From: Amoebophrya sp. A120
Lineage: Eukaryota; Protista; Dinoflagellata
Direction: 5' to 3'
NCBI GenBank assembly: GCA_905178155.1
Contig: CAJINV010000012.1
Coordinates: forward strand, 1,988,492 to 2,052,491
DNA length: 64,000 nt
The position numbers were made by a program, and so were the translations under genes. The notes under the pieces were generated by a model that was given only the letters and a program-made list of their open reading frames with translations, had not been told where the DNA came from and did no database searches. Positions 1 to 63,563 of the stretch are shown piece by piece (the stretch's first letter is position 1; every line of letters starts with the position of its first letter).

Positions 1-1784
1 ACCTGCAGCTCCGCGTCGGTCAACTTCCTGGAAGAAAGTTCCGCTTTCTCCTTTGCCTCTTCGTATTTCTGCGATAATAAATCGGACTTTCGCATCAACT
101 CCTGTATTCGATCCTCCGCCGCTTCTTGATCTTGAGACACGGAAGTTTTGAGGTGCTGGTACTCGGTATTTAATTCGGTGAATTTTCCCTCCAGCGCTTG
201 TTTCTTCTGCGTCAGCTCCGCAATCTCCTGCTCTGCCTCGTGTCTCTTCTGTGTCGCGTCTTGCTCGGCAGATGCGAGCTTCTGCTGCGAAGCAGTAACT
301 TCTTTCTCGGCGGTCTGCAGCTTGTCCTCGAGAGACTTGGCTTTTTCGGCAACCACAGTGTGATCGCGTTCGAGGGCTTCCTTTGTTTGTGAGGATGAAA
401 TTTGATGTCTTCTTCACTTGCAGTTTTTCCGAAGATTCAAGCAGAAAATCGATGGTGCTCCTGGTTGTGCAGATCAAATCGCAAAAATGTCATGCGGATA
501 AAAAACTACGAGTACTACGAACAGCTGGTTCAAATTTTATCTTGAATGGAAATGGATCTTCTAGAACTGTGAAACTAATACCCTCCGGTCCACCTCTTCC
601 CGCCTTCTACTCTCCGCTTCCAGCACCTCCTGGTCCTTCGCCCCAAGTTTCGCATCCACACTCTCTTTCTCTTCCCTGAGCTGTTGGTTTTCCAGCCTGA
701 TTGCGTTCAAGTTCTTTTCATACGACCCTTCGAGTTCTTTCTGCTTGTCCTTCTCGAACCCCACCTTTTTCCGCAGCTCCTCCCGCTCCTGCTTCACTTG
801 TTTCAGCTCAACGCTATGCATTGCAAAAATGTCTGGGTCTGAAAAGTTCGAACCTGTAATGCGTGTGTCGCATGTCTGAAAAATTTGTATTGCATAAGCA
901 GCAACTCAAGCGCCACACTTTCGTCATGCAAAAGCGCAGTTTGTAATGCCAATGCGTTCTGCGCATGACAAAGCGTTTGAAAAATTTGTCATGCTGCGCT
1001 GCACTTAAAAGCACAGTCAATCGTAACCATTCAGCATCACAAGTTTCCAGACCCAGACTTTTTTGCAATGCATAAACGCTGTTGTCGTCCAATTCGTCCA
1101 GCCTTTTCTTCACTTTCTCCAACTCAATCTCCCGCATCCGCAGCTGGTTCACCGTGTCCGCCAAGTCCGTCGAGGTTTCGCTGTGTTCCGCCCGTAATTT
1201 CTCCAACTGCTCTTCTGCGTCTTTCTGTGCGGTCAAGTGCACCGTGAGCCTTGTATTCAGCGTTTCTTTCTCGCTTTGCATCTGTTTCCGTTCCTCCACC
1301 AGCTGCTTGATTTCCTCTTGCAAGACGTCGACTTGCTGCAGCGATTGGCTTTGCCGCGATTTCGCATGGGAAATTTCGTCATCCCTCTCCGCGTTGGCGA
1401 GCTTCGTGCGCTCAATTTCATCCTCGAAAGCCTGCTTCTCGCCCTGACAATGTTGACACGTGTTTGTGATGCAGATGCTGACAACTCATCACACACATCT
1501 GGTACTAGTAACACACAAGAACATGATGTGCGACGCGACATTTACGCGGCAAAAAGAGTACAACAAGACGTCCTACAGTACAACGTACGTACCTTCAACC
1601 TCGTGATCGCCCCTTCCAACTCCGATATCTTTGCCAGCTGCGCATCCAGTTTGTCTTCCAGGTTTTTCAGTTTCAAATCTTTCGAGGCGACCGTATCTCG
1701 GAGCTTGGCGACTTCGCGGTTGCGCTTGATGAGCTCGCCCTCGAGCTCTTCCAGGTTCCCCAAAGCAGCGGAGGAGGAAGACAT
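1..1784 (-). CDS. Coiled-coil protein, multi-exon, 3' end runs off the window
   Basis: Exons read as E/K/L-rich heptads (MSSSSAALGNLEELEGELIKRNREVAKLRD...; QEEIKQLVEERKQMQSEK...). GT-AG intron at about 1444-1591. Removing introner 815-1074 plus one direct repeat restores the frame (DDNS-VELK). Confidence 0.75.
815..1074. mobile_element. Introner element, family B
   Basis: TIR TATGCATTGCAAAAATGTCTGGGTCTG / CAGACCCAGACTTTTTTGCAATGCATA; 5-bp direct repeat AACGC. Confidence 0.9.
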
Positions 1785-2437
1785 GCTGTGATGTTTCAAT
1801 CAGACGAGGCGGCGTTGCGAAAACAGGATGTCGTAGCTCTTGCCCCAGCCAGCGCTGAATCTGAGATTTGTACGGGTACACAACGCGATGTACCCGGTAC
1901 CAGCGGCCTTGATGTTCTTGCCTGGGAGATGCAGCTAGTCCCGCTTGTTGTCCATCTGGGCTTGCTTGCGTGATGCTGATGCTACCTGGAGCTGTGGCGG
2001 TACGTTGCCGCAGGCATCATGATTCTGCTAGTCACTACTAGTTGTAAAGTCATGAGCAATTCACTCAATATGCCAGTAGCGGGGCAGAGGCACGTGCAAC
2101 AAGAAGTCGCCGCGCTCTAAAACAAAATCACTCAGCAGAAGGAGAAGGAACTTTATCTTGTCTTCTTCTCTCCTACTTATCCACTCCAAGAGCCAGCAGA
2201 GACCGGCTTCCCACCAGAAGCAAGCTGCTACTTCTCATAAACGTCATCATACAGATACCGAACATCGGATGTTTCTCGATGAGCATAGAGGGAAAAGGCC
2301 CCTGCAAAGAATTGCTTGTCTTGTTGGTCCACCAACATCATGGCCGACGATTGCACTCAATCATGGCTCGGGCGCGAAACTACATTGCAAAAAAATAATG
2401 TTGGGCTTATGGTCCTGCTCCTGCTCGTCGTCGTCCT

Positions 2438-2899
2438 TATGAATGGACAACTTAGAAAAGTAGACCATAAACGACCCTTTGAAATCAAGAAAACAGCTCT
2501 TCGCAAAAAATGACTTTTGATCCGAACTTGTGATTTTTGCATTTGAAAGTTGTAATTTTTCGAGCTGCGATTTTTGCATTTCCGTTTTTCTTTATAAGTA
2601 TTTCGATCCGAAATGTTAATAGTTCAAACCGAAACATCGCATACTTCAAGCCGAGAAACAACTTCTTTTAAAGGGAGAAACTTCAATACCGATGAGGAGG
2701 AACCTTCAATACACAACTACCCGACCTTCGATAAACAACTAACCCGACTTCTTTTTCCTTCAACTTCCACCTTCAATTCCTTCAAGATCACAAGAGCTTC
2801 TTGATCAAAAAACCACACAAAACCACAAAAACTGAGCTCCTCTATGACGACCGGAAATTTCCAAAAGTTGTGGTTTACCGTAGAGCCACAACTTTTCGC
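2438..2899 (+). repeat. Left terminal inverted repeat of the giant element
   Basis: Starts TATGAATGGACAACTTAGAAAAGTAGACC and is the reverse complement of 17906-18367 (2 mismatches seen). Internal repeats GATTTTTGCATTT and CCACAACTTTT; 20-bp tandem duplication at the inner edge (about 2880-2919). Confidence 0.95.
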
Positions 2900-4016
2900 G
2901 TAGAGCCACAACTTTTCGCCATTCTTCATTCCTTTGCGAGACCGACACGACTTTTGCGGGCGCGCATCCGCTTGTTCGATTCAGTGGTTGAATTTCAACT
3001 ATTCAAAATAGTGCTGATGCATTTTCATAATGGAGATGCTCAGATGGCACAAGTTCAGCTCCGCAGCTTGTGCAGCGTCAAATCAAAGTTTTTGGCAATC
3101 AGCGCGCTTCCCGCATCTTCTCCTCAGTGGCGCGACAAAGTGGCTCAGTTCTAGAGAAGAGGTTCTTGCGTCTCAAGAAAAAAGGGCAAAGCACGTTGAT
3201 CGTCAGTAATACGAGACGCCCGAAGAGATGGGCGAAAGTGACAGTAGCATAAGCCACCCATAACGTAGATACAGAGGTATCTACAGGGTGGAAGAAGTGA
3301 AAGATGTAGTTTTTTTGCCTAATGCTGACAGTGCGCAAGCACTGCCAACATCAAGCGAAGAGACGGTGATGCTGCTGGTCGATGTCGTTTGTAGTGCGAA
3401 ACAAGAAAGGCAGCTCAACAAAGAGAGATCACTAGAAATTTATTTCTAAACAGAAAAATATCTTGGATAGTTTATTTTGTAAATATATAGTCTGCGATGC
3501 AATAAACTGGAACATCGCAAACGGTAGAGATGAGGATGTTTTTTTTTCTAAAACAAAAAATAATGAAAGTTAAATCATTAACATTGAAAACGAACTGTAG
3601 CACAAGTAAAAACTGAAGATCCACCTCTACCCGAAGCTTGCTAGTGAAGCTGAAGCACATTGACTCTGGCTCCTCCAACTCGCTCTCGCAAGTGTAAACA
3701 TGCTGACACTTCCCCGCTCTCGATAGCACTAGTACTCGCCAACGAAAGCAATACACCTACGTCTCCTCTTGGGTGGAGCACTTACGTCAGCTTCTACTTC
3801 TACTTCATAAATTGCTAGTAGTAAAAGCAACAGGAAACACCCGCACAGCCACAGATGTGATGCTGATACAGGTGCATGTTGCCAGTGACGACGCCAATAC
3901 TTTCAGTACGGAGGCGACTACAGACGTTGCAACGAAATTTTCGTGGTGACATAGCCAGAGCGAAAGTGAAAATTGCTAGTCTTATAGCCGATCCTTCCCG
4001 AGTTCAACTTAGTTCA

Positions 4017-7000
4017 TCACATCTTGAAGAAATCAAAACCACCGAAGTCATCCTCATCCATAGACGGACCGCGCGAGCGCTTCCCAGACTCCTCTTCGGC
4101 GGGACTCATCGGTCGCTTTGGGTTTTTCTTTGGGCGCCCCTTCGCCTTGGCCTTCGCGTTCGCACCCGAGGACGACGAAGACGAGGACCCACCTTCCTGT
4201 TCGTTGGGGTTCATCAGGTTCTTCTTGTGAAACGGGTTGCTCTCCCCCTCACCGAACGGGAACATGAAGAAGGTCATCCCGTCACCCAGGTCATCCTTCA
4301 CCTTGGCGTCCTCCATGCCCACGAGCTTGTCGTACTCGGTAGTCTGCATCTTCGTGATCGCGTCCTGTTCCGCTTTGGTGGGCGGCTTGTTTTTAGAGTT
4401 CAAGGCCTTCTTGCCGAAGTTCTCGCCCAGGTGGCTGTCGTCGGAGAACGTGTTCTTGTCCAGCGAGCAGAAGGGGTACTTGTAGTACAAGTCAAACGTG
4501 TTTCCGAAGGCGATCTTGCGCGGCTTGAAGATGATGGTCTGATCGACGTAGGCCTTGTTCGGGCGGAACTCCAACACCATGTTGTCCATCTTCAACACGA
4601 AGTCCATGTTCACATCCTCGGCGTCAACGTCCTTGCGCTTCACCAGCTTCGCCGGGACGCGGCACGGCAAGATGAAGGCCTTCTGCGTGTCCGTGGAGCC
4701 GAGGACCCACTCGTTGTCCTTATAAAAAGCGTGGCCGCTCATCAAGTCCTCGCGCTGGTAGTGCTGCTTGTCGAGGTGCGCGATCTCATGCGGGACCTGA
4801 AAAAAATTACATTGTTGGTCAGTGTTTAAAGTTTATGCGTAGGCTTACGCTTTTTACATTACATTCATTGCAGGGCGCTTGCGCATTGAGTTTGCAATAA
4901 CAGTTGATGCTGGCTATGACAATGAATATGACATGAGTATATCTACTGTCTATACCGGAAGCGCGCATATTACATGAAAATGACAATCGCTCTTCATCTA
5001 TACCGGAAACGTCTTCGCCATCGCGCGGACGGTCAAGCACTTGTGCTCCTGGGCCATCTTGATCTCTTTCTCCAACCGCTCGCACTCGGACTTCAGGCGC
5101 ATCTTGCGCTTCTTCATCTTCTCACCCTGCTCATTGCGGGCCAGCATCGCCTTCTCCTCCAGCATCAGGACCGCGTGCTCGTCCGTCTTCTTCCGCTCTT
5201 TGAACCGCGCCTTTTCGTCGATGACACTTTGCGCGATCGCGCGGCGGGTCTCGGTCTTCCAGGACCGCTCGTACGCCGCGAAGGCCGCCCGCAAATCCTG
5301 CATCTCTTTCTTCAGCTTCGCAACAGCGGGGGAAACACCGGGACCGGTGATGACGGCCTGCGCGTCGTTCAACACCGCCAGCGGTCCCTGATCGCCGCAG
5401 CTCAGGATCACGCGCTGCCCGGTCGCCAGATTCACGGCCGGCTCTGGTGTTGTTTTCATTTTAGAAATAAGACTGCAGTTTGTGTCGGTCACTGTCGCTC
5501 ATGATCATGCAAAGGCCAGCGCCAATTTATGATGCTAATCTGCGATGCCTGGAACTCACAGTAAATGCATGCAGATCGGACGCAAAGAAAAAATAGAGCA
5601 CGGGTCTCATGCTCCACCATGTGCAAGGAGGTTTGTCCACACTTATCCATATTGAGGAGCTTCAGGTCGAGTTTGATGACCTGGCGCACTTCCTTCAGCC
5701 GGGCCTCTTCTTTTTTCTTCGCCGCGATGTCCTGGGCGCCGAACAACCACACATCACCGGAATTGAACTTGCCCTCACGCGGGGTCTTAGCAGTGACCAG
5801 CTGTTTGACGTCGGTGATGGTCTGATTTGAGTAATTGTGTTTTGTATAAACGAGTGGATGTGGAAGTGGATGCGGAAATGGAAAAGGAAGTGGTAAAGGA
5901 AATCTAAAACACAATGGACGCTGCATATGAAACCAAGCACGAAGGAGCGTGTAATACTGGCTCTGGTAATGATGCAGATCACAGATGCTATCCCTATATT
6001 TATACTTACGCATGCAGATGTACATGCACAGCAAGAACGATAAGAAAAACGCACCTCGCAGCTCACGCCCTCCTCTTCGAAATGGAAGTCTTTGGCGGCG
6101 TTCCGCGCGGTCTCGGTGATTACCCGCAGAATCAGCTGATTCCAGAAGTCGGTCGCCAGCTTGTCCTTGTGGCAGCTCAAGCGGAAGCAGTTCTGCAGGT
6201 TCATGAGCTGCCCCTTGTTGACGGTGATCCTATTCTCCCCCAAGGTCAACTCGAAGTAGGCGCTGAGGGCGAGGTCCTTCACGGTCGAGTGTTGCCATTT
6301 GATCCCGGAGTCGAGCACTCTCGACCTGTTGTTTGATTTATTCGATTTCGTTTTCAATTTCATTTGCAGTGACGGACTTATTTTCACCTTCACTTTCACT
6401 TTCACTTTCACAACAGCGACAATAGAAATAAAATCATAAGTGATCGAATACCGACTCTGACGCTTTTTGTCGATACTGAAAATACACATACAGAGCATGC
6501 TTTTAGAAAATTGCTTTTGTGTTAGAAAGACTTAGTGTTTGCGTTTAGGTCCAGCGTCAACACATGCAGATGTAGATTGGTCACAGCGTGTCCATCTCTT
6601 TGTGAGTGCGGATCGAAGCTTGGCACTCTCATACATATTTTCTTCCACTGCACCGCGACACTAGCTGCACCGAATAAAAAAGCGCGACGGATCAAATCAC
6701 ATAGACATCTGGACACGGAGACTGAGATGGTGATAAAGTGGCGCGCGTTTATCTAGAAAACAATAACGACATCAAAATACCGCAACTGCGAGGGAAAGTT
6801 CTCTTCGTCACCCTCCTCCTGCTTGCGCCGGACGACATCCGCCCAGTTACAGCTCACCGCTCCCCATTCCCGCCCGCACTGCAAGTAAATTTCGATCTCG
6901 GTCTTCATGCTACCGACGGCCGAGCACTTGCTCTGTGGTGTTGTTTTGAGTTGGAGTCTCAGGTATATGCATCACGAGATTGCTCTTGCAGTTACAGGCG

Positions 7001-10000
7001 GCGAACGTGGAAATTTTCGAACTAAATATGGCACGGATAGAAACTCCATGCTCCTCGAAGTTCAAATGTACACACTGACACGCGACAAAAAGCGCAATTA
7101 AGTTTTGTTTTACCTTGAAGAACTTGAGCTCGTCCATGTCGGAGTCCGGATTGTCTTTTTTGAACTGCAAGTAGGCGGAATGTATCTGAGAAGTTTTTCG
7201 ATGCGTTGTTCAAACGTGACGCTTTCGCATTCCTTATCATTGGCAATAATTGAAAATACTACAGGCACGAGCACACGCATTGTCGCAATGCCAGCCCGTG
7301 GCACGAAGCCCCGCTTTTACGCCGCGATGAAGCGTAAGCTCGCACTGGCACAGCAGCGGAAGATAAAGAAGCCAAATGCAGCTCGCACTATGGCGCAGCA
7401 ACCAGCTGCGCGAAAGGCGATGAAGACAATGAAGAAAGGCGCGAAGGCCCGGCAGATCGGAAAACCGAAACCGCAGCAGCCTGCGCAGAAGACTCACGTT
7501 GTGGATTCAGAAGAGAGAAGCGGAAGTCTTACCATGCAGGACTGCATTCGCTTCGGGCTTCATTTGCAAACTAGTGCGGGCAGAAAATTGGAAGCGGGAA
7601 AACAATATCGCCTCGCGTGGTCAATCGCGTGCCTCACCGGCAGACGCGGTATGGACGTCCGGTGTTTGACCATGGACGACGTACGCGGCGAAGAGATTAG
7701 AATAGGAAATACAAAGACTGCGATCGCGCAAGGAGGGCGCGGCAAGCTAAAATGGGTTCCCATTAAGCCCAGCAAGCAGACGGCAGCTTTTTTGAAGGAG
7801 CGAAGGCGCGCACTACAGGACAAAGGGCTAAGTGGGGAAGATCGCGTGTTTGACTTTAACTACGAAGCCTTTGAAAAAAAAATCCGCGCTGCGCGCGCGA
7901 CGTTCAAGTGCGAAGGGCAGCGGAGCTGCCCCCCGACGCTGATTACCAGCCACACCCCAAGGCGCAGCCTTATTACGCATCTGCACAAGCAGGGGACGGC
8001 GCTTAGCACCATAATGCAAATCTCCGGGCACGCGTGTTTAAGCACTCTCATGCACTATCTAGAACGCGACTACTCATATCAGATCGAAGCCGCTGAGAAA
8101 GTCAAACTCTAGATACAAGAGCCCTCTTGTCGCTTGTTGAAAGAGATGAAGCTGCCACGACGACAATGCGAACAGTAGTACATAGGTGCGCCTCCAGTTG
8201 CGATCTCAGTCTTATTTTTGCGACACATGAATGAAAATTGAAAAGCAGGAAATAAACTATACTTCCGGGTAGACACTCAGTATTTTTTCTGTCATTGTCG
8301 TAGACAATGGAGAATTATTCTCATTTTGTAATCTGAGAAAAGTTCTCAGTAGCGGCTCGTACTCGCGGATCTTCTCGGAGAGGACGGTGAGCCTGATGGT
8401 AGTTTTAGATGAAAACATTACAAGAGGCAAGAATGATAACGGTTTGGATTTGGAGCGAAGTGGGAATTGAATTCGCCGATGAGTGGCCATTACTGAGAGG
8501 TAATAACTCCTGACGCTACATGAACATGTACATCTTCACGAACATAAATTATGAGCACAAAATGAGGCAGCAAAAACAAAAAGTACGTCAATCCCAAGCG
8601 TTCGTAAATGCCCGGCCCACCTTCTTCCAAGAGGAGTTGCTTTGCGGCGAGGGTGGAGTGCCATCCGCTGATGACCTCGAAGGCCGGCTCGACGTTCTCG
8701 TCGTCACTGCTTGTTCCGACCAGGTTGTTGATGCGGCTCGGCTTGATCAGCAACTTTTCCTTTTGTCCGGCGGCTTTAATCTCGTCTTTGTCCGACAACG
8801 GAATCACGACGATATCTGAAGAGGGCGGGGTTGTTGATGGTGATTCCGATTTCGATTTGCTGGCAGAACTACCAACTTTTTTATCATCACTATTACGGCG
8901 GAACGCGGGGAGCGTCATAACGAACTCCCTTAATTTTTGGTGCGCTGCCGCCCGGCGGCGCTTCTTCTGGGTCTGTTTTTCCAGCACCGCTGCGACCTCG
9001 ATATCGCTAGGTGAGAAGTCAACGTCACTGCTCGCGGGGCTGTTTTCGCAACTACCAGAAGCGGAGTCGTCCGACTCGCATGGTGGTGTCGCACTATGCG
9101 AGCCTTCGAAGGCGGGCCACGAGAGACGGCCGTTCTGTTGCTCGCTGAGGTGCTGGAGTGCCATCCTTGTATGGTGGCCGGACAATATGTGGGGCATCTG
9201 GTCAAGCCACACCAGCGGCATCGGGGACTGGTACACACTAGATAACTGCTCATCAGCCCACCCGAAGATGAGGCAGCGCGGCGGGGTAGTGTACACTTTT
9301 TGAAACAAAGCCGATTTGTCGGGGCGGGCAACGATGTTGCTTCGTGGCCTTTTACCGCCCGAAATCATCATGCTCTTGAGGAAACAAACATGCTTTTCCC
9401 GGGCCCGACGGCGACTATCTAACCGGAAATCAAGGAACCCGGGCCACGACAAGGGGTCGCGGATGTCGAAACCGACGGGGAATGGGTCATCGGGTGTACG
9501 GCCTAATCTGAACAGGGCCCGCTCAATCTTGCCGCAAATGTACCAACTCCAATGCTCACCAAAGATGCCTATGGGTGAGAAATTGGGGGCAATTTTGTAC
9601 TTCAGACTATGTCGCTGGCGCAAAATATGGTGGAAGGCGCGGGTAGTTCGAGGGGTACATCTACTGCTATTCGTGGTTGTATTGTGAAAAAAAAGTAATA
9701 TATACCCTTGACTTTGACGTAGTCGCCGCTGGTCATTGCGTCCAGGAGGGTCAAGCAGTGCTGCCAGGAACGGAGGGGATTCCGGCGGGACTCCCCCAGC
9801 TGGCGGAGCGTGGCTTGCAGCAAAATCGCGCCGGCTTTGAACTGCGGAGAGGTGAATCTCATCACGAAGTCCGAGAAGTCCTTCTTCATCATTCCCCCGG
9901 CGTGCCAGCAAGTCATGACCTGCTCCACTTCTTTGGCAGTCGGTAAACCCGCCTTCATCTCCTTGCACAAACCGATGACGGACGTCCACGACACGTTGGC

Positions 10001-10186
10001 ACCGACGGGCAAGACCTGATCGAACTGCGAGTCCGGGTCCAACTTTCCCAACCGCGCGACTTCTTCTTCCTCCTTCAACATCTCCAACAACGAGATCTCT
10101 TTTTCCTTTTCCTTATCGCCGGCGCCGGAAAGCGAGGACTTAGGTCCCGCTGAAGTAGACACTTCAGCGACGGGCTTTTTGCTCAT
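4017..10186 (-). CDS. Transposon cargo gene, multi-exon, with ParB/Srx-like motifs; may be one gene or two
   Basis: Phase-compatible GT-AG chain of exons ending at about 8586, then about 8392-8263, 7185-7114, 6878-6781, 6325-6067, 5821-about 5600, about 5470-5003 and about 4796-4017. Motifs PHILSGHHTRMAL and FEVISGWHSTLAAKQL...LQNENNSPLSTTMTEK. The 5' exon (MSKKPVAE, 10186) junction is uncertain. Confidence 0.6.
7288..8112 (+). CDS. Tyrosine recombinase (phage integrase family catalytic domain) with basic N-terminal tail
   Basis: Full catalytic set in order: LTGRRGMDV (R), NTKT (K), HTPRR (HxxR), ISGH (H), LMHYL (Y). Intronless. ATG at 7288 inside ORF 7105-8112. Confidence 0.9.
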   Translation: MPARGTKPRFYAAMKRKLALAQQRKIKKPNAARTMAQQPAARKAMKTMKKGAKARQIGKPKPQQPAQKTHVVDSEERSGSLTMQDCIRFGLHLQTSAGRKLEAGKQYRLAWSIACLTGRRGMDVRCLTMDDVRGEEIRIGNTKTAIAQGGRGKLKWVPIKPSKQTAAFLKERRRALQDKGLSGEDRVFDFNYEAFEKKIRAARATFKCEGQRSCPPTLITSHTPRRSLITHLHKQGTALSTIMQISGHACLSTLMHYLERDYSYQIEAAEKVKL

Positions 10187-10328
10187 CTTTACACGCTCTG
10201 CACGGAAAAAACCACGCCGCGTGGACAAGATCTACACTAACTCAGACTGATTATCGCTCGCACTGGACTGCGTTTTTGATTGAAAATAAAGTAGTTTTGT
10301 GGAAAAGTAGTGCATTTCCAGAACGTTC

Positions 10329-10481
10329 CAAAAGTGGCCAGATCTCAGAACGAGACTACTTTAATTAAAAATTAATTAATTCTTGTGCTCTGAGATTTTT
10401 TGCATGATATTTTCAGACAAATCAATGATTTTTATTTATTTTTAATTAAAATAATCGCGGTCTGAGATTTGGCCAATTTTG
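10329..10481. repeat. Central AT-rich imperfect inverted repeat (candidate recombination or binding site)
   Basis: CAAAAGTGGCCAGATCTCAGAACGAGACTACTTTAATTAAAAAT ... ATTTTTAATTAAAATAATCGCGGTCTGAGATTTGGCCAATTTTG; arms about 50 bp, spacer about 50 bp. Confidence 0.8.
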
Positions 10482-11769
10482 CATCAACATAAAAATTGCA
10501 TTACTTCAGTCATTTTTGATCTCGAACATGGTTTGGCTCGTGTTGAAACCGACTCCGTTCTCTCCTCATCAGACCGACAAAACGTGCTTGAACAATGTCC
10601 AAACCGACCCCATTTGTGCATGATCTCGCTGCGCGCATGCAGTAATTACGTCTGCTCTCATTCAAATTTCGATCTCGCCGCGCAGCTCGAAGCTCGTACT
10701 TCATACTTCAATTTGTCGCAGAAACAAGCAACGACCCTCGTCCTTTCATCGTATTATCGGCGGGATCATGAGCACCAATACGGGGGTAGAGTGGCAATTT
10801 TTGGAATCTGTGATGCTGCGACCGTTCATTTTACGACCATGGTCTCTCCTTCTCCATATGAACTTCATGAGACAAAAGCGCGAAGATTTGACAAGATGAA
10901 GGAGGTTTCTATGCGGGTAGAAGAGTATCACGTGGTCCATTTTTGCAGATCTTTTTTGTTGGACGAAGATAATCGAGTGTGTTGCTGGAGGAAGATTTGC
11001 TTGCTTCGGGAACTATAGTTGCTGTGCAAGTAGTGCGCGAGTCTTGGATTTTACATACATGATATACCGCGCGCTCTATTTCTATTTCCCTCATTTTTGC
11101 AGCTTCAATGCTTCCCTTAGTTGCGCAAAGCAGCCAGGAGAAGACATCAGCCATATCAAAGTCGGAGAATCATCGCGAGCAGCATTGAACTATTTGGGGC
11201 TGGGTACAAACGCAGTTGGGGCGAGTTTTTTCATAACATTGGCTTTTTTTATCGACGAATGCTGGGCACCATTGCACACACAGGGAGCATATGTAGCAGC
11301 AGATCACTGTCATACTTCTTTTCATTACAAACACAAATACAGAAGGGAGCAACGTCTTCTCTTGGGTACAGCATATGATAATTTTGCCTGCATCAGGCTG
11401 GAGTGCGGGTACTACGTACATGAGCAGGCGATGAATAACGACGGCGCGGGCTAACGGATACGGAACCGAAAGCACTAGTCGTCGACTTCTCGACTAGATT
11501 TCAAAAGACAAGTGCGTCTGATGCTGATTGTGGTGGAAGTGCGCACGCAAGTGCATATCTTTATCTATAATTATACCGCACAAATGAGGAAGCCAAGTGA
11601 TCGCACTGTGTCTGTACCTGCGGGCGGAAGCGCATTTGCAACCACAACCACGTCGCAGATACATGTACGCGCGAATTCGAATTGGACATGAACATGTGAA
11701 ATACAAATACAAAGGGAAACCCAAATACAAATCGGTAGTTACATTACATGCTTTGATTTCTGTACAGGT

Positions 11770-18367: not shown

Positions 18368-18568
18368 GTCGTCCTGGCACGTAAATATTAAAAACATCAG
18401 CAGAAGATATGACGTTCTGCTCGAATCATTTCTACAACAGCTCCTTCCAAGGCAATTGTTCAATATCGACGCAACTACCGACTGTCATTTTTGCTAGCGG
18501 TACCGCCTCCTTGTATGCTGGCTTGACAACAAATAAAACGTGACTCTTGAAATCAAAAGCACCTACTT

Positions 18569-54400: not shown

Positions 54401-54712
54401 TCAAAGTTGAAATAATTTGTAATGCATAAAGTGCATGACCCGGGGTACGTGTGTTGCAGAGCAGGCAAGTGAGGCCGATTGTGAGCCTGTTTGGGGTTAC
54501 AGCTCGAGCTGCTAGAGTAGCATGAGAAAATCGCTCTTCTTTGCCTAAACAGCATGACAAACTGGATTCAGGGACCACCGAAATTTGTCACTGGCATCCA
54601 TTTTATGCATGACAAATTATTTCAACTTTGTCGATTTCAACTCTGACACATCCATATGGTGAGTGCTGGTCGTGCCGGAGGATGCTGGGGTGGTGGAATC
54701 TTGATCGGGCAT
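45446..54712 (-). CDS. Kinesin-14-type protein: N-terminal ankyrin repeats, K/E-rich and coiled-coil middle, C-terminal motor
   Basis: Neck RKKKLHNHVEDLKGSIRVFVRVRP, P-loop YGQTGAGKT, switch I NSESSRSH, switch II DLAGCER, VPYRNHSLTQLMQDSLGG; ankyrin motifs RTLLMYAC, LTALHHCC, GVTPLM. ATG at 54712. 16 introners. Confidence 0.88.
45937..46207. mobile_element. Introner element, family B
   Basis: TATCAAATGCAAATATGTCTGGGTC ... GACCCAGACATATTTGCACTCCATA; DR CTGTT. Confidence 0.92.
46271..46498. mobile_element. Introner element, family E-like
   Basis: TATCGCAAAGAAAAAAGTGTTACAGT ... ACTGTAACACTTTTTTCTATACCATA; DR TTCTC. Confidence 0.9.
46578..46792. mobile_element. Introner element (degenerate TIR)
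   Basis: TATCGTACGAAAAAA ... TTTTTTCTTGTGATA; DR ATCCG. Confidence 0.85.
46993..47260. mobile_element. Introner element, family B (reverse orientation)
   Basis: TATCAAATGTAAACATGTCTG ... CAGACATATTTGCAATGCATA; DR TCCGT; removal restores FDGY-NVTIFAYGQTG. Confidence 0.93.
48297..48523. mobile_element. Degenerate introner element
   Basis: TATG...CATA termini; DR TCCAT/TCCTT; interrupts a coiled-coil exon. Confidence 0.6.
48966..49757. mobile_element. 792-bp MITE-like element nested in an introner
   Basis: Imperfect TIR of about 45 bp (TTAGGGGTGAAAAAAATCCAT..CCCAAAATGTTTG vs reverse complement TTAAGGCTCAAAAAAATCCAT..CCCAAAATGTTTG); TSD TTATA; removal restores the family A sequence GCATTTATACG. 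Confidence 0.88.
49403..49482. repeat. 80-bp spacerless palindrome
   Basis: TTCTTTCAAACTTCAGCTGAAGCTCAAATTTGACTTAAAG|CTTCAAGTCAAATTTGAACTTCAACTGAAGTTTGAAAGAA; 37 of 40 positions pair. Confidence 0.92.
49894..50038. mobile_element. Introner element, family A (reverse orientation)
   Basis: TATGAACTGCAAAAGTATCG ... CGATACTTTTGCACAGGATA; DR CTTCG. Confidence 0.93.
50182..50326. mobile_element. Introner element, family A (near-identical to 49894-50038)
   Basis: TATGAATTGCAAAAGTATCG ... CACAGGATA; DR ACCCG; same 145-bp length as its neighbour. Confidence 0.93.
50420..50925. mobile_element. Introner element, family B, carrying a nested insertion
   Basis: TATCCACTGCAAATATGTCTGG ... CCAGGGATATTTGCATTCGATA; DR TTCTC. 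Confidence 0.88.
50460..50685 (+). mobile_element. 226-bp retroposon-like insert (SINE or 5'-truncated LINE)
   Basis: Flanked by a perfect 20-bp duplication GGGTCTGGAAGATGTCATGC (50440-50459, 50686-50705); A-rich 3' tail AAAATAAAAAGTAAAA; no TIR. Confidence 0.75.
51959..52107. mobile_element. Introner element, family A
   Basis: TIR TATCCTGTGCAAAAGTATCGTACTCGTA on both ends; DR TACCA. Confidence 0.93.
52176..52455. mobile_element. Introner element, family B-like
   Basis: TATCAACTGCCAAAATTTCTGGGTCTGG ... CCAGACCCAGAAAGTTTTGCATTTGATA; DR GGGGA. Confidence 0.9.
52606..52823. mobile_element. Introner element, family E
   Basis: TATGCAAGAAAAAAA ... TTTTTCTTGGATA; DR CCCCC. Confidence 0.9.
52913..53186. 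mobile_element. Introner element, family B
   Basis: TATGCATGGCAAATATGTTTGGGTCTGGAAG ... CTTCCAGACCCAGACATATTTGCAGTGAATA; DR decayed (GCGCC/GTACC). Confidence 0.85.
53388..53654. mobile_element. Degenerate introner, now compatible with GT-AG splicing
   Basis: TATGCA..GACAATCATGATG / CATCATGATTGTC..TGCATA; on the minus strand it reads GTATGC...CATAG. Confidence 0.7.
53939..54242. mobile_element. Introner element (family C-like purine/pyrimidine TIR)
   Basis: TATTGCGAGGAAAAATCCCCCCTCCCCATAG ... CTATGGGGAGGGGGGATTTTTCCTTTTGATA; DR TTAAG/TCAAG. Confidence 0.88.
54376..54656. mobile_element. Introner element (singleton, long TIR)
   Basis: TATGGATGTGTCAG..AAAGTTGAAATAATTTGT ... CTGACACATCCATA; DR TGGTG. 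Confidence 0.92.
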
Positions 54713-55622
54713 CTTTTTATGTATGGTTTAGGCTTTCTGATTCTGCTTACCCCTGCAACGTAAATGTTAACGTACGTCAAAAAAGTTCGTATCGATAGTG
54801 TGGCTGCGATGCTGGGCTGGGGTGCAATAAACAAAACAGAGAGTGAGTGAGTATGTAAATACAACTACGCTACTAGAAAATCTACGTGATAATTTTCAAT
54901 GGGGAGGGGTACTAAATATTGCGCTGATAAGTTGTCGCTACATGGTTTGTTCACTGTATGTGTTGATGTATACGAATGGTGGCGCACGAGCAGACACTGC
55001 AAACAATCAAGAACCGGAAGGCCAAAACGACTCTGAAAAATACGACGACCACACCACCGAAAGCTAAGGAATGATGTCCACAACCGAAAAGCAACGTACT
55101 TCATCTGCGGTCGTCGTTTGTCAAGCAACCATTGCGCGTTTCTTTGGGCTGAAAGAACGATGGACCGAATCAACAATACAGAGCGCCGTCGTCGCTTTGC
55201 ACTGCAGGAGTGCTGCGTCAGACCGAAGTTTACAGCTGCGCCGCGGACCGACATTTTTACGTGAGGGCGGGGCAATAAAACGACCGAATATGATGTCAGG
55301 TCTTTTCTTTGACTTTGTTAATGTTATCAACATCACGATTGAGAAGTCAGTCGTCTTTTCGTTTTCCGCAGGGGGTAGCGAAACGGGCAATTGAACGAGG
55401 AGCGCCACCGAAAAATATTGATTTTGTCACAATTTTCTTACATCTACTACCGGGGCCGCGATGAAACAATGTAGACGATGCTACGACGATGAGCAGTAGC
55501 GACGAACAGGTAAAAAATATCAAGTTTTAAATTAGGCAATTACGCTTGCAGTTTCGTGGCTGCAGAATGGCTTGCTTCATTTTGCATTTCATCGATCCTT
55601 AGGCCTACTTGGTAGAAAAACC

Positions 55623-58079
55623 TCATGGTGGAAACTGTTTCAACTTCCCTCTCTGGTCGAGAATCTGACGGAGTTCGCGAATCAATATTCTGGATTCGCT
55701 TTCGCTGTTCTTTTTGGCAGCATCAGAAGTTTGCAGCTTCTCCGCTGTTGTACGAAAATTACTTCGAAAAAAGTTCAAAGTCTCCACACTCTTCCCCTCA
55801 TCGGGCCGCAGGAGAAAGGTGATATTGTGGCGATGCTGAAAATTATAACTTTCGGACTCACTGCCACTGCAGCCTGTTGCGTCTTTATAATCAAACTCGA
55901 AGTTTATCCGATGCGGCAACGCGGTGAAGATTTTGTTGGTGAAAAGCTCCAGATAATCACCGATCCAGAGGGTAAGGATAATGCTCTTGGAGCTGTCAGC
56001 TTGACCTTGAGCTCCACGGAAGTCCGTGCCGACCAATAAATCCTGAATTTTTACCCAGGATTTTTCTCCTAGTTCCGCTTCGTTTTCCGAAGTGGTTGCA
56101 GAGCTCCTTGTTCTCTCGTGGTCCTCACCACCACTATCCTGTGCAAAAGTATCGTACTCGTATAAATGCAAGTAGTGCATTACGAATCTTGTTCCCAAGG
56201 CAAATCTGCATTACAAATTTTCTTTCTCATGCTGAGGAAATTTGTAATGCATTTATACGAGTGCGATACTTTTGCAATTCATAACCAGCAGGTAGTAGCA
56301 ACTCCAACCCCCTCCTGGCCAAAGACAAGGTCAAAAAGGTCGCGTCGGTATGGGCGGGGAACGAAACACCGGATGAAAGCGCGGAAGTTTTAGAACAAGG
56401 TGCTGCAGCTGCTTCTTGTGCTTCCACATTTTTATCGTATCTACTTTCTACTACAGGCGCTGGCTCGTCTTCATTTCTCGTTTCCACCTGCTCGGCATGA
56501 CAAACTCGGGGCTCGTACCTTGAGCATCGCAGCACGGACGCAGAAACGGAAAAGCTGTCCTCGTCTTTTTCATCGCACAGAAGTATGAACTGCAAAAGTA
56601 TCTATCGTACTCCTACTCGTATAAATGCATTACAAATTGAAATTCCCTCACCTCCATGAGAAATAAGATTTGTAATGCTGATTTGCCTTGGGAACAAGAT
56701 TTGTCATGTTGCAAGACTTGCATTTATACGAGTGCGATACATTTGCACTGGATAAGAAGCTCTGTGAAGCAATTTATTCTCCTGGTCGCGTGGTCCGCGT
56801 TTTTCCCACTACTTGAATTAGATTCAGACAACGCCTTCTCGCATGCTGACAGAGACGCAGCACAACAACAGCTCCCTTTACTTGTAGTTATTTCCCGTAC
56901 TTGAAGTAGACAACTCTCTTGCTGCTCCAACGTGCTGGCCGCGCAGAATTCAAAGATCCAATCCAGCGCCTCGGTCGCCAAATCGCGCAAAAAATTGTAG
57001 GAAAAACTTCCCAACGCGTGCTGCAACTTCGGCCGGATGCCAAGCGGAGTGTTTTTCAGATCAAGGAAATCCGCGTTGTGCCGTTTGGTGTAACCGCACT
57101 TCACAAGATTGCTCCACTTTTTCATAGAAGTAGACGGTTTTGCAGTCAGTGCAGTAGTTCTTGTTGAGGGTTCATCATTGAGAGAAGCTCTTGACGGCGG
57201 CGCGGCGGTCGCACGGCCGTGCGCATCGTTGTCCAGTCGCCTTCTTGGCGTGACGTGGTCATCCTTATTGCTGTCGCCAACTTCTTCCTCAAAGTAGCCT
57301 TGTAGGTTGCGCAGTTCGGTTATGAAGGCCTCAGAATGGAAATTCTCAAAGTGAAAATCATTTGTGATGCATGAAATGCGACACCAGAAAGACTGTATTG
57401 CAGAGAAATGCAGGTCGACTATTGTGCTTCCACGGGTTCAGAATTGGGCTGCTGACTAGCATGAGAGAAGGGCACCGCTTTGCCTAACTAGCATGACAGA
57501 CACGTAGGTTTGAGTGCCCGGAAAATTTGTCATGCGCCGACTAGAAATGGTGTTCCAACTGGAGTCGTTTCTTTGCATTACAAATTATTCTCACTTTGAG
57601 GATTTCCAACCTGAGGCTTTCATATCGGTGAAAAGTGCGGCAGAAGCTTCTGGGTCCGTCACTCGCAGGAGCACGTAGCTGTTCTGTTGAAGGAATGAAA
57701 GGCACTGCTGCCTGATTGAATTTTTGTCCTTACTACAGATGCTTGGATGATGAAGATTAAGATCTCCTATTAGTTCGCCCACACCAGGGGAGGCACCTCC
57801 TGCTCCAGTAGAATCACCCTTCTTCCGCACGTCAGAAAGATCGAAAATGGGCGGCGAAGTGTCGGCCGTTGACGAGGTTTTTGAACCGGGGAGAGTACCT
57901 CCTTGAATAGTATCGAAGTCATTTTTCTTCGTTTGGGTGAAGGCATTCCGCCCAGCAGGAGTTCGATCATCTACTTCACATGTTGGGGACAAGCAGGGGA
58001 CTACACCCGCAACGGCATCCCCATCTTTTACGCGATTGCATTTGCAGCGAACTACACCCGCCCGGCATATTGCAGACAT
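55623..58079 (-). CDS. 2OG-Fe(II) dioxygenase (isopenicillin N synthase-like fold)
   Basis: PAHTDATFLTL (HxD), WIGDYLELFTNKIFTALPHRI (distal His) and RHNITFLLRP; three introners. Confidence 0.8.
56135..56283. mobile_element. Introner element, family A
   Basis: TATCCTGTGCAAAAGTATCG ... CGATACTTTTGCAATTCATA; DR ACCAC/ACCAG. Confidence 0.9.
56584..56754. mobile_element. Introner element, family A (reverse orientation)
   Basis: TATGAACTGCAAAAGTATC ... GATACATTTGCACTGGATA; DR AGAAG. Confidence 0.9.
57321..57624. mobile_element. Introner element (singleton, TIR about 50 bp)
   Basis: TATGAAGGCCTCAGAATGGAAATTCTCAAAGTGA ... TCACTTTGAGGATTTCCAACCTGAGGCTTTCATA; DR TCGGT. Confidence 0.92.
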
Positions 58080-58978: not shown

Positions 58979-61900
58979 TCAGTTGTGTGGTTCACAACTA
59001 CTGATAAAGAAGTCGTCCAAGGACGAGCTCTCCGGTGCCTTGTCCTTCGTCACTCTCTCTTGCTGAAAATGTCCTCTTTCGTGGACCGGGACAGTATAGT
59101 CGAGGACTGCTAGTCCACCTACCGGTACATCAACCCGTAGCGCTTCGTAGTGCTCAGGACTATAGGAGCTTCTCGTTGCAGCTCCACCATGTTCTTGATC
59201 TCCGACCAGCTTGCTGGAAGTACTATATTTCCACCTGTCGTCATACACGTAGCTGGGCTGCTTGCGGAGCGGCTGTACGAGGACTCCAGAGTTGCTATCC
59301 TTATCCACGCCCTGTGCGGGGGAAACATTCTTAATATCGGGCGAGTGACGAGTTTTTTTAACTCTGTGCCTGAGTCGTTCACTTCTCTTTATCGAAGAAG
59401 CCGATGATGAGGCCACCTCCGACGAACTACCCGCTTCACTATTTCGGGCGGGAGAATGTGAAAAATGTCTAGAACTTGTTCGACGTCGACCGCCGCGGAA
59501 CGCATTGCGAAGCAGCAGACAAAGGTTGCTGTTGCTGCAGGTTGCGACACTCGTCTTCTTGACGGAGCTGGACGTAGATGCCCGTCGAGCGGCGGCGAGA
59601 CTGGTGCTGCCGCGTAGTTCCTCCTTCGCCACGGAACCTCGCCGCAGATTTTCGTTATTTGACGTTGTAGTTCCTGCTGCTCTTCTTGCCTTTTCATTCT
59701 CGTAGTTATCGACGTGTTGATGACACGAACTTCCAGCACTTTCCTCATTTTTACCAGTGCACCCGTCAGGAGCTCCCGCGCCGGCCGTGTCGTGGTTATC
59801 AACTGTAAAAATGTCTGGGTATCCTGGAAGATGAGTGCCAGACTTGTCATGCAGATTTTCCATCACCCATGAGGTCTGCTATGTAGGACATAGTATGACA
59901 GATTCTGTGAGTGTTCCATCATGCCTTTCCTGCATGAGAAACTGCCTCTCGATTAGGTCAAATGTGGACAGCTTTTGGTAATCACGCAACACAGTTTTTT
60001 ACATGTTGCAGATTTAGCATGACAAGTTGCTTTGTCCCAGACCCAGACATTTTTACGTTTCATAGTGGTGGAAATTGTGCAACGACCCGTGATGCAGGTC
60101 CACAAACATCTCCTCCGGCAAATGCCCGCTGATGTAATCATATCCTGTGCAAAAGTATTGTACTCGTAGTAATCGCAGTGATGCATTACAAATTGCTTTC
60201 TCAAATGAAGTCCGCATGACAAATTTTATTTCTCATGCTGAGGAAATTTGTCATGCGATTTGTACTAGTACGATGCTTTTGCATTTCATAAATCAAAATA
60301 AAAGCTGCGGGTCCGCTTCGCAATGTCCTCCGCGTTCTGCAGCTTCTTCCGACGCCGACACAGGCGCAGAACCCCGCAACACTTGTCGATACACATCAAA
60401 AATAACAGAACGAAAATGCCCGTCACCATCAGGGTCGTAACCAAACCGAAAAGGCTGGACGCCATCAGGAGATTGTCCATAGCCCGCTGGTAGACCGCGT
60501 CGTCTTGCTGCTGTTGCGTCAACATCAAGTCGGCTTGCTGGTTTTCTTGCAGTAATAACGGCGAGGGTAGGAAGAGACCCGCGAGCTTTGCTCCGACAAG
60601 GGGAAGAAAATTCACCGGATTTAGTTTCTGAAAAAAACCTCCTGCAGCAGCAGCAGCATCTTCGAGGGCGTCTTGCGCCAATGCCGGGGGAGGTAGTTCG
60701 GACGATGAGAGGTGAGGTGATTCTGATTGTAGATGTAATCCACTGTTTCTCCCGGCGGCTGCAGCAGACGGCGTAAAACTATCGTCAAAACGGAGCGGAC
60801 GGTCATTGTTGCCGAGTTTTGGTAGATCAGGATTTTGCAGCACAAGGTCACTCATTTCATCCTCGTCAGCTTCCTCGAATAAGTTAGCGGCCAAAAAGGA
60901 CTCGTGATCTCTACTTCGTGACGGGCTGGTACTTTCTCCCGTCCCTCCTTGTTCTCGGCTAGTAGTAGTACCTTGCCGCAGCTCGCGAGGACTGAACCGT
61001 CTCGGCCGTTGTTGCCCTTTCGGCGTGGCGGCAACTACGACCCCGTCGTGGATGGGACCAGTGCTTCCGGCATAAAGATCTTCTGATACTGATGCAGGAA
61101 CCTGCGCAGTACTTGGAATTCGAATTTCATCTTCCCGTACAAAGCTCTGGTTTCTTCGTTTCGGTGGGCCAGCAGCTGCAGGTGGAACTGCAGCGGCCGA
61201 AGTTGGAGACATCACTGGCGCACGACCATCGTGGTCCCCTTGCCGCAACGCCAGCGGACTGGAAGCCGGCGGGGCCGCTCCTGCAAGAGAGTTGTAGTCC
61301 GTGGTTCCAGAAGGTCTGGTTGATGTCCCGAACAACTTGACCACGAAATATCGAAAAGCATCCCGCCTCAATTTCTGCAACAGCCCGGAGGAGGACATCC
61401 CGGGTGCAGTTGTCCCAGCGGTGGAACCCGATAGTAGATTCCCCGATGGTTGTCTCCGCCCACTGCCATTTGTGTTCCGCAGTGTCGTTGATGATGTTGT
61501 TGCCATGTGGTTCACTTCTCCTCCTCCTGCACCAGCACCACCGCCTGCTGCCCCGCCGGCGTACATGCTTTGATCGTCGAGCGTCGACTGTTCAAGTTCA
61601 TCTTGCCCGTCCAGCTCGGAATAGTTGTACTGACTGAAACCGTCATCCCCGCCGCCCGCGAGGAGCATTATCCTGAGTAAAAACGTACCCACACCAGAGT
61701 TGTAATGCAGATTTGCAAAGACAGAAAGACTTGTAATGCGCATCCCCATGAGAGCCATTTCCAATCGTGTTTTGGAATTCGTGATGCTGTGAACAGGAGG
61801 AGCAGATGAATCTGTGATGCGGCTGCACTTGCTAACCTGCACTACACTGCATAGTGCAACTTGTCATGCGTGACTCCTAAAACTCCTAGGTTTGTGTTGC

Positions 61901-63563
61901 AAAATCCTCATCTTGACTCTGGTGTGGGTACGTTTTTACTCAGGATAAGCATCCCATCTACTTCGTCGTCGCCGGCAGAGGAAATGTGCTTCACAAACTC
62001 GATCAAATCTTATGACAGTGCACAACTCCCCCTCCCCCTCATTTGTCATGCAAAACACCAAATCCAGGCTGTGCCTCTTGGCAGTGTTTGCATGACAAAC
62101 TCAGGAACTCCAAACAGTAGTACAATCCACTATAGATTTGTCATGCAAAACCGGCATTCTTGCTGATCCTTGTATTGCCGCTTATGCTATACATCAAATG
62201 AGGGGAGGGGGAGTTGTGCACTGTGATAAATCTCGCCAGGCCTCCATCTCGCCGGTCAGAACCGGCTCGGCGATGCACAACTCGGTGAATTCGCAGTACC
62301 CGTTGTAGAGTTGCCGGATGACCAAGTTCAGGATGGTCGCCGTGTGAACTTTTTCGTACGTGTTGCCCCGCTCTGGGTGGTTCGGATCCGGCGGACCCCA
62401 GGCCATCTGGTATTCATATAACGAAAAAGGAGCTTATCACTCATTTTGGATGCGACAGGAACAACACGACCCGTCGCCCGCCAAGCAAACAGGACTAGTG
62501 AAAGCAACCGATAAACAGGAAGAGAACGATTGAAAAGATTTTATTTAAACGTAGTTTGCAAATGTAAATGTTGAAATACGAAAACGTCCTTGACCCACAT
62601 GGTATCCCAGCCCCAGATGACGGAGTACAGCCTTGTTTGCTGAATCGCGATCTCTTTCAACCGTAAGTCATCGTTCATGGCCTCCTTGATTTTGTACAGA
62701 CTCGTCAATGGGTTCTGGAAAACGGAGTTCGCAATACGCCGGATGTTGGATTCCTGGGGCGGCAATGCCGGAATCGCGTTCTGGATGTATTGCGGGATCT
62801 CCTTAAACATCTCGGCCCAGGTTTTCGACCGGTTCAAAGCCGACTGTGCCGGCGGCTGTTGAGAAGATGGTGCACCAGCCGCAGATGGGTTATTTTGTAC
62901 AAAAGAGGCAGCTTTACTATTTGCCTGTCCTGCGGCCGGGGAAGGTGGCGTCCCCCGTCCTCCTTGCTGCGGAGGTGGTCCACGCGCAGCGCCGGCTGCT
63001 CCAGGTGTTTGGCTGCTCCAGGTGTTTCGTCGAGCTAGTTGTGGCACGGACACGGAACGCGCAGCCGCGCCGCTCGCCCCGGGGCCTCCACGACTACAAG
63101 TATTTCGACTGGCAGAGGATATTGATGACCCTCCGGCGCTTTGATTCAGCGTGCCACCGGTTTCGCCCTGGACGAGTTGTTGCTGTAATAATCGGATCTG
63201 TCGCTGCTGCAGTTGGGGTTGTTGTAGCGGTTGTTGAAGACCAGTCCCAGGTGCTGACCCCGGACCCGGTACAATAGAGTTCTGCCTCTTGAATGCGGGG
63301 ACGGTCGGCGGCCGGTTTCGACTAGACATGGAGCCGCCCGCTGCTGCTCCCGCCGCCGCGAGAGGTGTAGTTGTAGCACCAGCATGAGACGACGAGGCAC
63401 TGCCGCGACCACGGGGAAGGAGGGGTGGCATTTTTGGAGCTCCTGGTGCTCCTGCGGCCGCAGTGGTGTTGCCGTTTTGTTGCATGATTTGGTGCTGATA
63501 ATTTTGTAGTTGTGGCCCTCCAACTGCTCCTGTAGGTAGAGTATTTTTACCCGCCTCACTCAT
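58979..63563 (-). CDS. Hypothetical low-complexity protein with one predicted TM helix
   Basis: Exons joined across four introners and one GT-AG-like intron (about 62409-62575); TM-like segment LLMASSLFGLVTTLMVTGIFVLLFLMCI. Confidence 0.65.
59797..60064. mobile_element. Introner element, family B
   Basis: TATCAACTGTAAAAATGTCTGGGT ... ACCCAGACATTTTTACGTTTCATA; DR GTGGT. Confidence 0.92.
60141..60290. mobile_element. Introner element, family A
   Basis: TATCCTGTGCAAAAGTATTGTACT ... AGTACGATGCTTTTGCATTTCATA; DR AATCA. Confidence 0.9.
61669..61947. mobile_element. Introner element, family D
   Basis: Perfect 32-bp TIR TATCCTGAGTAAAAACGTACCCACACCAGAGT; DR AGCAT. Confidence 0.93.
62011..62228. mobile_element. 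Introner element, family C
   Basis: TATGACAGTGCACAACTCCCCCTCCCC ... GGGGAGGGGGAGTTGTGCACTGTGATA; DR AATCT. Confidence 0.93.

Follow-up and report, generated by a model that had tools for sequence, protein, structure and literature searches.

The closest described system to the one reported here is that of the introners of Amoebophrya sp. A120, to which about 30,000 introns of that genome belong (Farhat 2021, PMC7789003). Their inverted repeat was described as TAT, seven variable bases and AAA, and their direct repeats are 3-5 nt long. The intron border was marked as unknown (Fig. 3 legend), and the repeats were reported to lie 1-5 nt from splice sites that were called variable (Fig. S23 legend). 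We analyzed a 64-kb stretch of DNA (hereafter the window), positions 1,988,492 to 2,052,491 of contig CAJINV010000012.1, which contained 40 such elements. A first-pass annotation of the same DNA had recognized about 35 of them as transposons acting as noncanonical introns, and had regarded the phenomenon as known in Amoebophrya. On the latter point we agree, because the element ends match the published signature of A120 introners (PMC7789003) and the species-named relatives of a window protein all belonged to Amoebophrya AT5.2. The system is already known; the new part is a more precise rule for its splicing that can be tested directly, namely that the intron is likely N-TAT...ATA-NNNN, with one base preceding TAT at the 5′ cut and four following ATA at the 3′ cut.

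Introner elements and their host genes

We searched the window for TAT...ATA pairs that were 80-900 nt apart, were flanked by an exact 5-bp repeat and had at least 8 of 14 terminal positions paired. The scan returned 26 elements, and 20 order-3 Markov sequences scanned in the same way gave 0.55 on average and three at most. When 9/14 pairing was required, TAT gave 25 matches and the runner-up among the 64 terminal triplets gave four. Repeats of other lengths gave few matches (two for 4 bp, none for 6 bp and one for 8 bp). The strict matches, the diverged copies, the long copies and one old copy recognized through RNA together made up the catalogue of 40 elements, which occupied about 11 kb (Table 1). 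Thus the elements first annotated are far beyond chance expectation, although their number was underestimated.

The two copies of the 5-bp repeat were identical in 27 elements; they matched at four positions in five elements, at three in six, at two in one and at one in one. In a position matrix of 62 element ends, TAT reached about 98% and A at positions 11-13 reached 87-95%. Clustering of 39 elements yielded seven groups (of 12, 9, 3, 2, 2, 2 and 2 members) and seven singletons. The earlier estimate of at least five families plus singletons therefore stands, except that the TAT/ATA termini attributed to all of them are replaced by TAC/GTA at one end of 25576-25794. Sliding the junction could produce GT-AG in only 2 of 39 elements, in keeping with the earlier statement about most of them. 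An Rfam search of the window gave no match. The elements are almost certainly non-autonomous DNA transposons of the A120 introner type.

Some weakly paired TAT/ATA ends, 41768-42171 among them, were excluded because a frame or a repeat was missing, and 48014-48523 was rejected as a single element and divided into two. The AT-rich region 40000-45400, which holds 42721-42960, also has unpaired TAT- or ATA-like ends at 41619, 42171, 43025, 43218 and 44927.

The host genes lie on the minus strand. When each element was removed together with 5 nt, 37 of 39 junctions (the nested pair counted as one) came to lie in minus-strand frames that ran for 150 codons or more without a stop, the longest being 1227 codons. 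By comparison, removal of 0, 4 or 6 extra nt placed only 19-20 of the 39 junctions in such frames, and the longest frame was 571-620 codons. Restoration of the frame by removing an element and one repeat copy, as first proposed from the junctions translated, thus holds across the window, and the kinesin junction quoted as FDGY-NVTIFAYGQTG was correct. The two junctions without a long frame were those of 25576, next to a short exon, and 42721, where only a 91-codon frame was present and a gene is not established. The first-pass placement of all elements within genes thus holds for nearly all of them and is uncertain for 42721-42960. One gene, for an ankyrin-kinesin protein, has 19 elements at 18 sites, 14 of which were bridged by contigs of probable RNA.

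Elsewhere, 31658-39973 holds a pair of long frames on the minus strand, each with about 1070 codons. One of them, 36779-39973, is free of introners and had only a weak PUA-like match. The GC-rich segment 19200-21000 lies between host genes and has no clear gene.

Probable removal from RNA and the inferred position of the cuts

Three runs from one sample (X3-X5) consisted of assembled contigs whose RNA status was the software's guess ("probable RNA"), and run X1 consisted of DNA-like contigs, with an even, 23-33-fold depth in unique stretches. Contigs of X3-X5 were placed at 100% identity across 47550-54800. The counts below cover the 15 listed joints out of 17, all in one gene. A raw-read run (X9) was uninformative: 88 of its 3.3 million reads were placed, and 98% of those departed from the window sequence.

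At 14 of the 15 joints, exactly one element or the nested pair was missing together with 5 nt, and none of the 14 was GT-AG on the sense strand. The contigs bearing these joints were 734-2651 nt long and had no other letters, and the gaps occurred in series within single contigs. The remaining joint, 52216-53150, was seen in X3 only, had a 24-nt side and lay within two related elements; it was discarded as repeat cross-mapping. X3-X5 also contained contigs that retained an element.

In X1, contigs with 0-1 differences ran unbroken through the elements at 47207-48863, 50873-51984 and 53159-53965, and coverage was even over genic and intergenic bins. The summed X1 depth over the elements was very high, which is a figure of depth and not of copy number. 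Retention in DNA, a check proposed with the first annotation, was thus observed in DNA-like contigs. Excision from DNA in expressing cells, as with the internal eliminated sequences of ciliates, might also explain the joints, given that transposon-like excision can leave one repeat copy precisely and that the RNA nature of X3-X5 was a guess. However, we find it scarcely credible, because the X1 contigs keep the elements; in addition, the asymmetric register described below tracks the direction of transcription. We are highly confident that removal occurs at the RNA level.

In what follows, U and D denote the upstream and downstream copies of the repeat, and k is how many bases of U remain. A perfect repeat permits any k from 0 to 5. 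The aged copies are more restrictive: 47612 and 48297 allowed k = 2-5; 48014, 52913 and 53939 allowed 4-5; and 53388-53654 allowed 3-4. These sets intersect only at 4, so k = 4 was the sole value compatible with all 14 joints. The diverged repeats, which the first-pass annotation had suggested for fixing the cut site, thus gave one register. We consider a fixed register at k = 4 probable, on the assumption that a single register would be valid for all copies. Element 53388-53654 was treated as an old element for its TATGCA/TGCATA ends, its 2/5 repeat and the loss of the element plus 5 nt. Its reading as a GT-AG intron at 53383-53656 was rejected, as the joint length was 272 and not 269.

A cut flush with TAT (k = 5), or one that differs between copies, would make 53388-53654 an unrelated odd intron. 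Three informative elements do permit both 4 and 5, and variable sites 1-5 nt from the repeat have been published (PMC7789003). On the other hand, 53388-53654 has the TATGCA/TGCATA ends and loses exactly the element and 5 nt, and the published spread may be the alignment ambiguity expected across a 5-nt repeat. At 26192, within a charged coiled coil, the residue would be Arg for k = 4 but Cys for k = 5, which is a weak hint for k = 4. We regard the flush or variable cut as quite improbable.

Two features of the cuts follow from the aged copies. The repeat is not needed for removal, since 48014, with a 1/5 match, was still removed exactly. AG seemed to be ignored at the 3′ cut, since GT-AG readings available at 52913 (k = 1) and 53388 (in frame, 269 nt) were unused; use of nearby GT-AG sites had been named in advance as an outcome that would speak against noncanonical removal.

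The joints might also be imagined as template switches of reverse transcriptase at hairpins, the cell itself using ribosome hopping or not reading through at all. Direct repeats combined with structure are a known signature of this artefact (PMC4176328), and a 5-nt repeat always includes one full codon in any frame. However, removal was exact where the repeats matched at only 1/5 or 2/5, and 14 gaps stood in series within single long contigs. Moreover, it is the upstream copy that the product retains, and a switch at the base of the hairpin would be expected to leave the downstream one. For this reason, and because no sequence shared by the two sides is required, we think template switching very improbable.

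Table 1. Coordinates of the elements and other features in the window. Fractions are matching positions of the two 5-bp repeat copies; k values are those permitted by each copy; "skipped" means missing from probable RNA contigs.
Feature	Coordinates	Strand	Remarks
Introner, group A	815..1074		5/5; opens 220-codon minus frame
Introner, group B	22467..22631		3/5, mismatches at sense positions 1 and 5
Introner, group B	23652..23777		5/5
Introner, group D	25576..25794		5/5; TAC/GTA at one end
Introner, group C	26192..26414		3/5, mismatches at positions 2 and 5
Introner, singleton	27696..27846		4/5
Introner, group B	27903..28056		5/5
Introner, group B	28739..28887		5/5; sole GT-AG reader in inferred register
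Introner, group A	28936..29197		5/5
Introner, group A	29257..29521		5/5
Introner, group A	29893..30154		5/5
Introner, group B	33040..33294		4/5
Long introner (1337 nt), group E	34363..35699		5/5
Element, group F	42721..42960		3/5; host gene not established
Introner, group A, kinesin motor	45937..46207		5/5
Introner, group C, kinesin motor	46271..46498		5/5
Introner, group F, kinesin motor	46578..46792		5/5
Introner, group A, kinesin motor	46993..47260		5/5
Old introner	47612..47959		3/5; skipped; k=2-5
Old introner	48014..48229		1/5; element+5 skipped exactly; k=4-5
Old introner	48297..48523		4/5; skipped; k=2-5
Introner, group B, with inserted inner repeat	48830..49797		5/5; skipped
Introner, group B	49894..50038		5/5; skipped
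Introner, group B	50182..50326		5/5; skipped
Introner, group A, with inner insert	50420..50925		5/5; skipped
Nested pair, outer element	51760..51955		sense 5′ end interrupted by 51959..52107
Nested pair, inner element, group B	51959..52107		5/5; pair lost together as 355 nt
Introner, group A-like ends	52176..52455		5/5; skipped
Introner, group C	52606..52823		5/5; skipped
Introner, group A	52913..53186		3/5; k=4-5; GT-AG at k=1 unused
Old introner, TATGCA...TGCATA	53388..53654		2/5; k=3-4; in-frame 269-nt GT-AG unused
Introner, singleton	53939..54242		4/5; k=4-5
Introner, group G	54376..54656		5/5; skipped
Introner, group B	56135..56283		4/5
Introner, group B	56584..56754		5/5
Introner, group G	57321..57624		5/5
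Introner, group A	59797..60064		5/5
Introner, group B	60141..60290		5/5
Introner, group E	61669..61947		5/5
Introner, group D	62011..62228		5/5
Host gene with ankyrin repeats, an acidic, coiled-coil central part and a kinesin motor at the C terminus	45449..54727	-	about 1226 codons
15.9-kb DNA transposon (15,930 nt)	2438..18367		479-nt inverted repeats (98%), TAT...ATA ends, 8-bp flanking repeat
862-codon frame, predicted diverged hAT-type DDE transposase	12505..15090	-	D79, D159, CxxH 204-207, RW 256-257, E482
Tyrosine recombinase frame in 15.9-kb element	7102..8109	+	Pfam Phage_integrase E=1.5e-8

Proposed splicing machinery and internal organization of the elements

At k = 4, T at donor position +2 and A at +3 were invariant, and 38 of 39 elements had G or C at +5, which is partly so by construction. 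TAT(G/C) occupies positions +2 to +5 and resembles the GTA(T) donors of the window: among six hand-picked predicted canonical introns, GTA was the start of all six and GTAT of four. The GT/GC donor and AG acceptor of U2-type introns were not found as a rule, GT-AG being present in 1 of 40 elements and available GT-AG sites being bypassed twice. Base bias within the repeats gave no acceptor signal. Folding of 36 elements gave a predicted terminal stem with P>0.5 for 24, and the mean pairing exceeded 0.3 in 33 of the 36.

We lean towards removal by a relaxed spliceosome, because the machinery other than U1 is reported to be present and, whichever way an element is oriented, its end offers TAT(G/C), which resembles a donor. 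In A120, nearly all spliceosomal proteins and U2, U4, U5 and U6 were reported, and U1 small nuclear RNA was not found in the published survey (PMC7789003). A precedent is seen in Fritillaria, where non-GT-AG introns derived from MITEs (miniature inverted-repeat transposable elements) are handled by the spliceosome (PMC11282704, PMC13326754). In the proposed mechanism, the terminal repeat would provide TAT(G/C) as +2 to +5 in either orientation, leaving +1 free. At the 3′ side, the machinery would measure from the repeat's ATA end with the aid of the terminal stem, instead of recognizing AG. Removal would be made seamless by the 5-bp target duplication, which, once made, would not itself be required.

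The explanation as a whole, comprising A120-type introners, RNA-level removal, a cut at k = 4 and a relaxed spliceosome, is in our judgment somewhat better than an even bet. Several observations weigh against it. The joints come from one gene, one sample and assembled contigs of guessed RNA status; 2 of 17 lie outside the listing and one listed joint was discarded; and X1 is possibly the data from which the window was built. The upper bound k ≤ 4 depends on a single element, 53388-53654, whose repeat matches at 2/5 and whose inverted repeat is 6 bp. Donor position +1 has no G bias (A 13, G 11, T 11, C 4), and the last two intron bases are AG in 2 of 40 elements. Introns missing the +1 G and the terminal AG are disfavored by ordinary spliceosome chemistry. 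Finally, a third of the folded elements fell short of P>0.5, and no stem was predicted in two elements that were removed exactly.

Some of these observations would suit the main rival, a non-spliceosomal nuclease and ligase guided by structure, which might measure 1 and 4 nt from the stem in the same register and free a circle, a mechanism put forward for the nonconventional introns of Euglena. The +1 G and terminal AG are missing, a stem was predicted in most elements (33/36 by mean pairing), and U1 was not found in the A120 survey (PMC7789003). The Euglena code likewise has a short 5′ and a long 3′ spacer, with circular products (PMC12501133, PMC11282704). Nevertheless, TAT coincides with +2 to +4 of the GTA(T) donors in the window, the two elements without a predicted stem were removed exactly, and the remaining spliceosome was reported as intact (PMC7789003). 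We therefore consider such an enzyme unlikely and retain the relaxed spliceosome as the working explanation.

If the rule is indeed fixed, gene models could be put right wherever an aged copy lies. The choice between a spliceosome and a new enzyme would become concrete, with a place for the branch point and bases to mutate. It would also mean that a transposon can enter any place in an exon, in either orientation, free of cost.

Within the elements, the motif GCAT[GTC]ACA[AG] (GCATNACAR) occurred 105 times, in all 39 elements scanned, in both orientations and across unrelated groups. Its density was 9.7 per kb in the elements and 0.19 per kb elsewhere, the motif having been derived from the same elements. 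A branch point at fixed distance was not supported, as position and orientation differed among groups. Because its position varies, the motif is likelier to be an array bound by a transposase, judging from its arrangement. Two predicted GT-AG introns, at 1444-1592 and 27016-27180, also contained GCATNACAR, which suggests that old introners may be present among the canonical introns.

One element was found inside another. The inner element 51959-52107 interrupts 51760-51955 at its 5′ end in the sense direction, and deleting it would rebuild the end of the outer element. The arrangement suggests a twintron-like case, in which the inner element would be spliced first.

Two other introners carry insertions. 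Inside 48830-49797, an inner repeat at about 48966-49755 has GG...CC inverted ends and TTA flanks, and includes a 118-nt palindrome (49384-49501); a copy about 95% alike was present in X3 and X8 contigs. We take it to resemble a PIF/Harbinger-type MITE. The insert in the group A introner 50420-50925 is about 240 nt long and is flanked by a 19-nt direct repeat.

The 15.9-kb transposon, candidate mobilizing enzymes and related systems

In A120, transposase was reported as absent, and a general transposase-driven spread of introners was ruled out on that ground (PMC7789003). The window contains a 15.9-kb transposon between two host genes, with a predicted transposase frame, a tyrosine recombinase frame and several frames of unassigned family. 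No introners were recognized inside it. An inverted duplicate of 153-158 nt (74%) was noted at 10329-10481.

The 862-codon frame had 11 relatives, at least eight of which were Amoebophrya AT5.2 paralogues. It gave no sequence match in Pfam or PDB, nor any in word-based protein searches or in scans of viral and metagenome contigs. A single-sequence fold (pLDDT, the predicted local distance difference test, 36) was not used, and a core model built from 15 sequences reached pLDDT 70. With this model, the best ten Foldseek rows were all Hermes (best E 3.6e-4). VIA against Hermes gave Z 13.2 over 306 aligned residues with a root-mean-square deviation of 7.3, and the next unrelated structure gave Z 7.1. 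In an alignment of 10 sequences, C204, H207 and R256 were invariant and D79, D159 and E482 were largely kept; by analogy, the last three would fit the catalytic triad. The other hAT motif positions that we assign to the frame are presumed ones. CxxH has a described role in hAT transposases (PMC7780238). The frame is thus predicted to encode a hAT-fold transposase: an RNase H DDE core with a helical insertion and CxxH appear in the model, and an 8-bp target-site duplication (TSD) and terminal inverted repeats (TIRs) are present on the element. For an N-terminal BED finger or a C-terminal dimerization domain, Pfam gave no match, and the start exons are undefined. AT5.2 gene models matched frames of the 15.9-kb element at 8260-8406, 9677-9949 and 11902-12318, which suggests from sequence that the AT5.2 strain carries related giant elements. 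A hAT-fold transposase family that is unseen by Pfam would undo the argument against transposase-driven spread.

Whether this transposase, or a close relative staggering its cuts by 5 bp, spread the introners is another matter. The 15.9-kb element shares TAT...ATA ends with the introners, and the predicted fold matches Hermes by both methods. The ends of hAT elements typically bear repeated subterminal motifs in both orientations, which also speaks for a spreader of the hAT type. Duplications of 5 bp are known in hAT5 families (PMC12730594). However, the 15.9-kb element is flanked by an 8-bp repeat, has 2 copies of GCATNACAR over its length and none in its inverted repeats, and had no blastn match with any introner region beyond itself. 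Given its 8-bp repeat, the near absence of the motif and the lack of shared sequence, it is probably not the direct mobilizer, and spread by its transposase or such a relative seems improbable.

The mobilizer would be expected to bind GCATNACAR. No cognate autonomous element sharing the introner ends and TSD length was found within the window. By a narrow margin, we favor an integrase-like transposase of the Ginger/IS3EU type; a hAT5-like enzyme is possible though unlikely. IS3EU/GingerRoot elements have the TA...TA termini also seen here (PMC10045372), and A120 family 38, listed as Ginger, combines TA/TA termini with a 5-bp TSD (Gozashti 2025, PMC12130899; among the first 40 of 58 A120 rows). 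Unlike the elements here, IS3EU usually makes 6-bp duplications (PMC10045372), and no integrase-like frame was found in the elements.

These lines can be joined into a bolder reading, which we offer tentatively and at rather less than even chance: a genome-wide second splicing code, N-TAT(G/C)...ATA-NNNN, supplied by transposon ends alone. Its donor would lack the +1 G, and its acceptor would lie four bases from the inverted repeat and override nearby AG. A factor of splicing or of transposition would recognize GCATNACAR, copies nested in one another would act as twintrons, and overlooked giant TAT-ended hAT-fold transposons would supply an enzyme class thought absent.

Compared with known systems, the 15.9-kb element resembles hAT elements such as Hermes in its predicted RNase H core with helical insertion, its CxxH and its 8-bp TSD. 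It differs from them in an identity of about 10% to Hermes, 479-nt TIRs and a tyrosine recombinase cargo. Introners of Micromonas and Aureococcus are likewise non-autonomous DNA transposons whose TSD gives seamless splicing, but they use canonical sites, one from the element and the other from the TSD (PMC11282704). Introns of Fritillaria borealis are also transposon-derived, with TIR and TSD, and are removed on a genome scale without GT-AG (PMC11282704, PMC13326754). Their ends prefer AG-AC and AG-AT and U1 is kept, whereas here neither +1 nor any of the final four bases is constrained. The nonconventional introns of Euglena are similarly MITE-like, with an inverted triplet near the ends, a short 5′ and a longer 3′ spacer and no GT-AG (PMC12501133). 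However, their signature is N3CDG...CHG N5-6 followed by a purine, in an unrelated lineage; here the form is N1-TAT...ATA-N4, with the triplet TAT/ATA, spacers of 1 and 4 in place of 3 and 5-6, and the exon that follows showed no purine rule. Full-length circles are known for Euglena, and the joints here were read from contigs.

In the literature searched we found no earlier mention for Amoebophrya of a fixed register, a shared motif or a transposase of the hAT type; Roy et al. 2023, or the figures in the supplement of Farhat 2021, may bear on this. The likeness to A120 introners is the closest of all: the TAT start, AAA at 11-13, 5-bp repeats, lengths of 130-350 nt, many families, a hairpin, and absence from probable RNA at non-GT-AG borders (14 joints). 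There is no difference in kind. Beyond the first-pass annotation, the window adds the old element that sets the bound, and hence a register, together with a shared internal motif, a nested pair and a 15.9-kb element bearing a predicted hAT-fold transposase.

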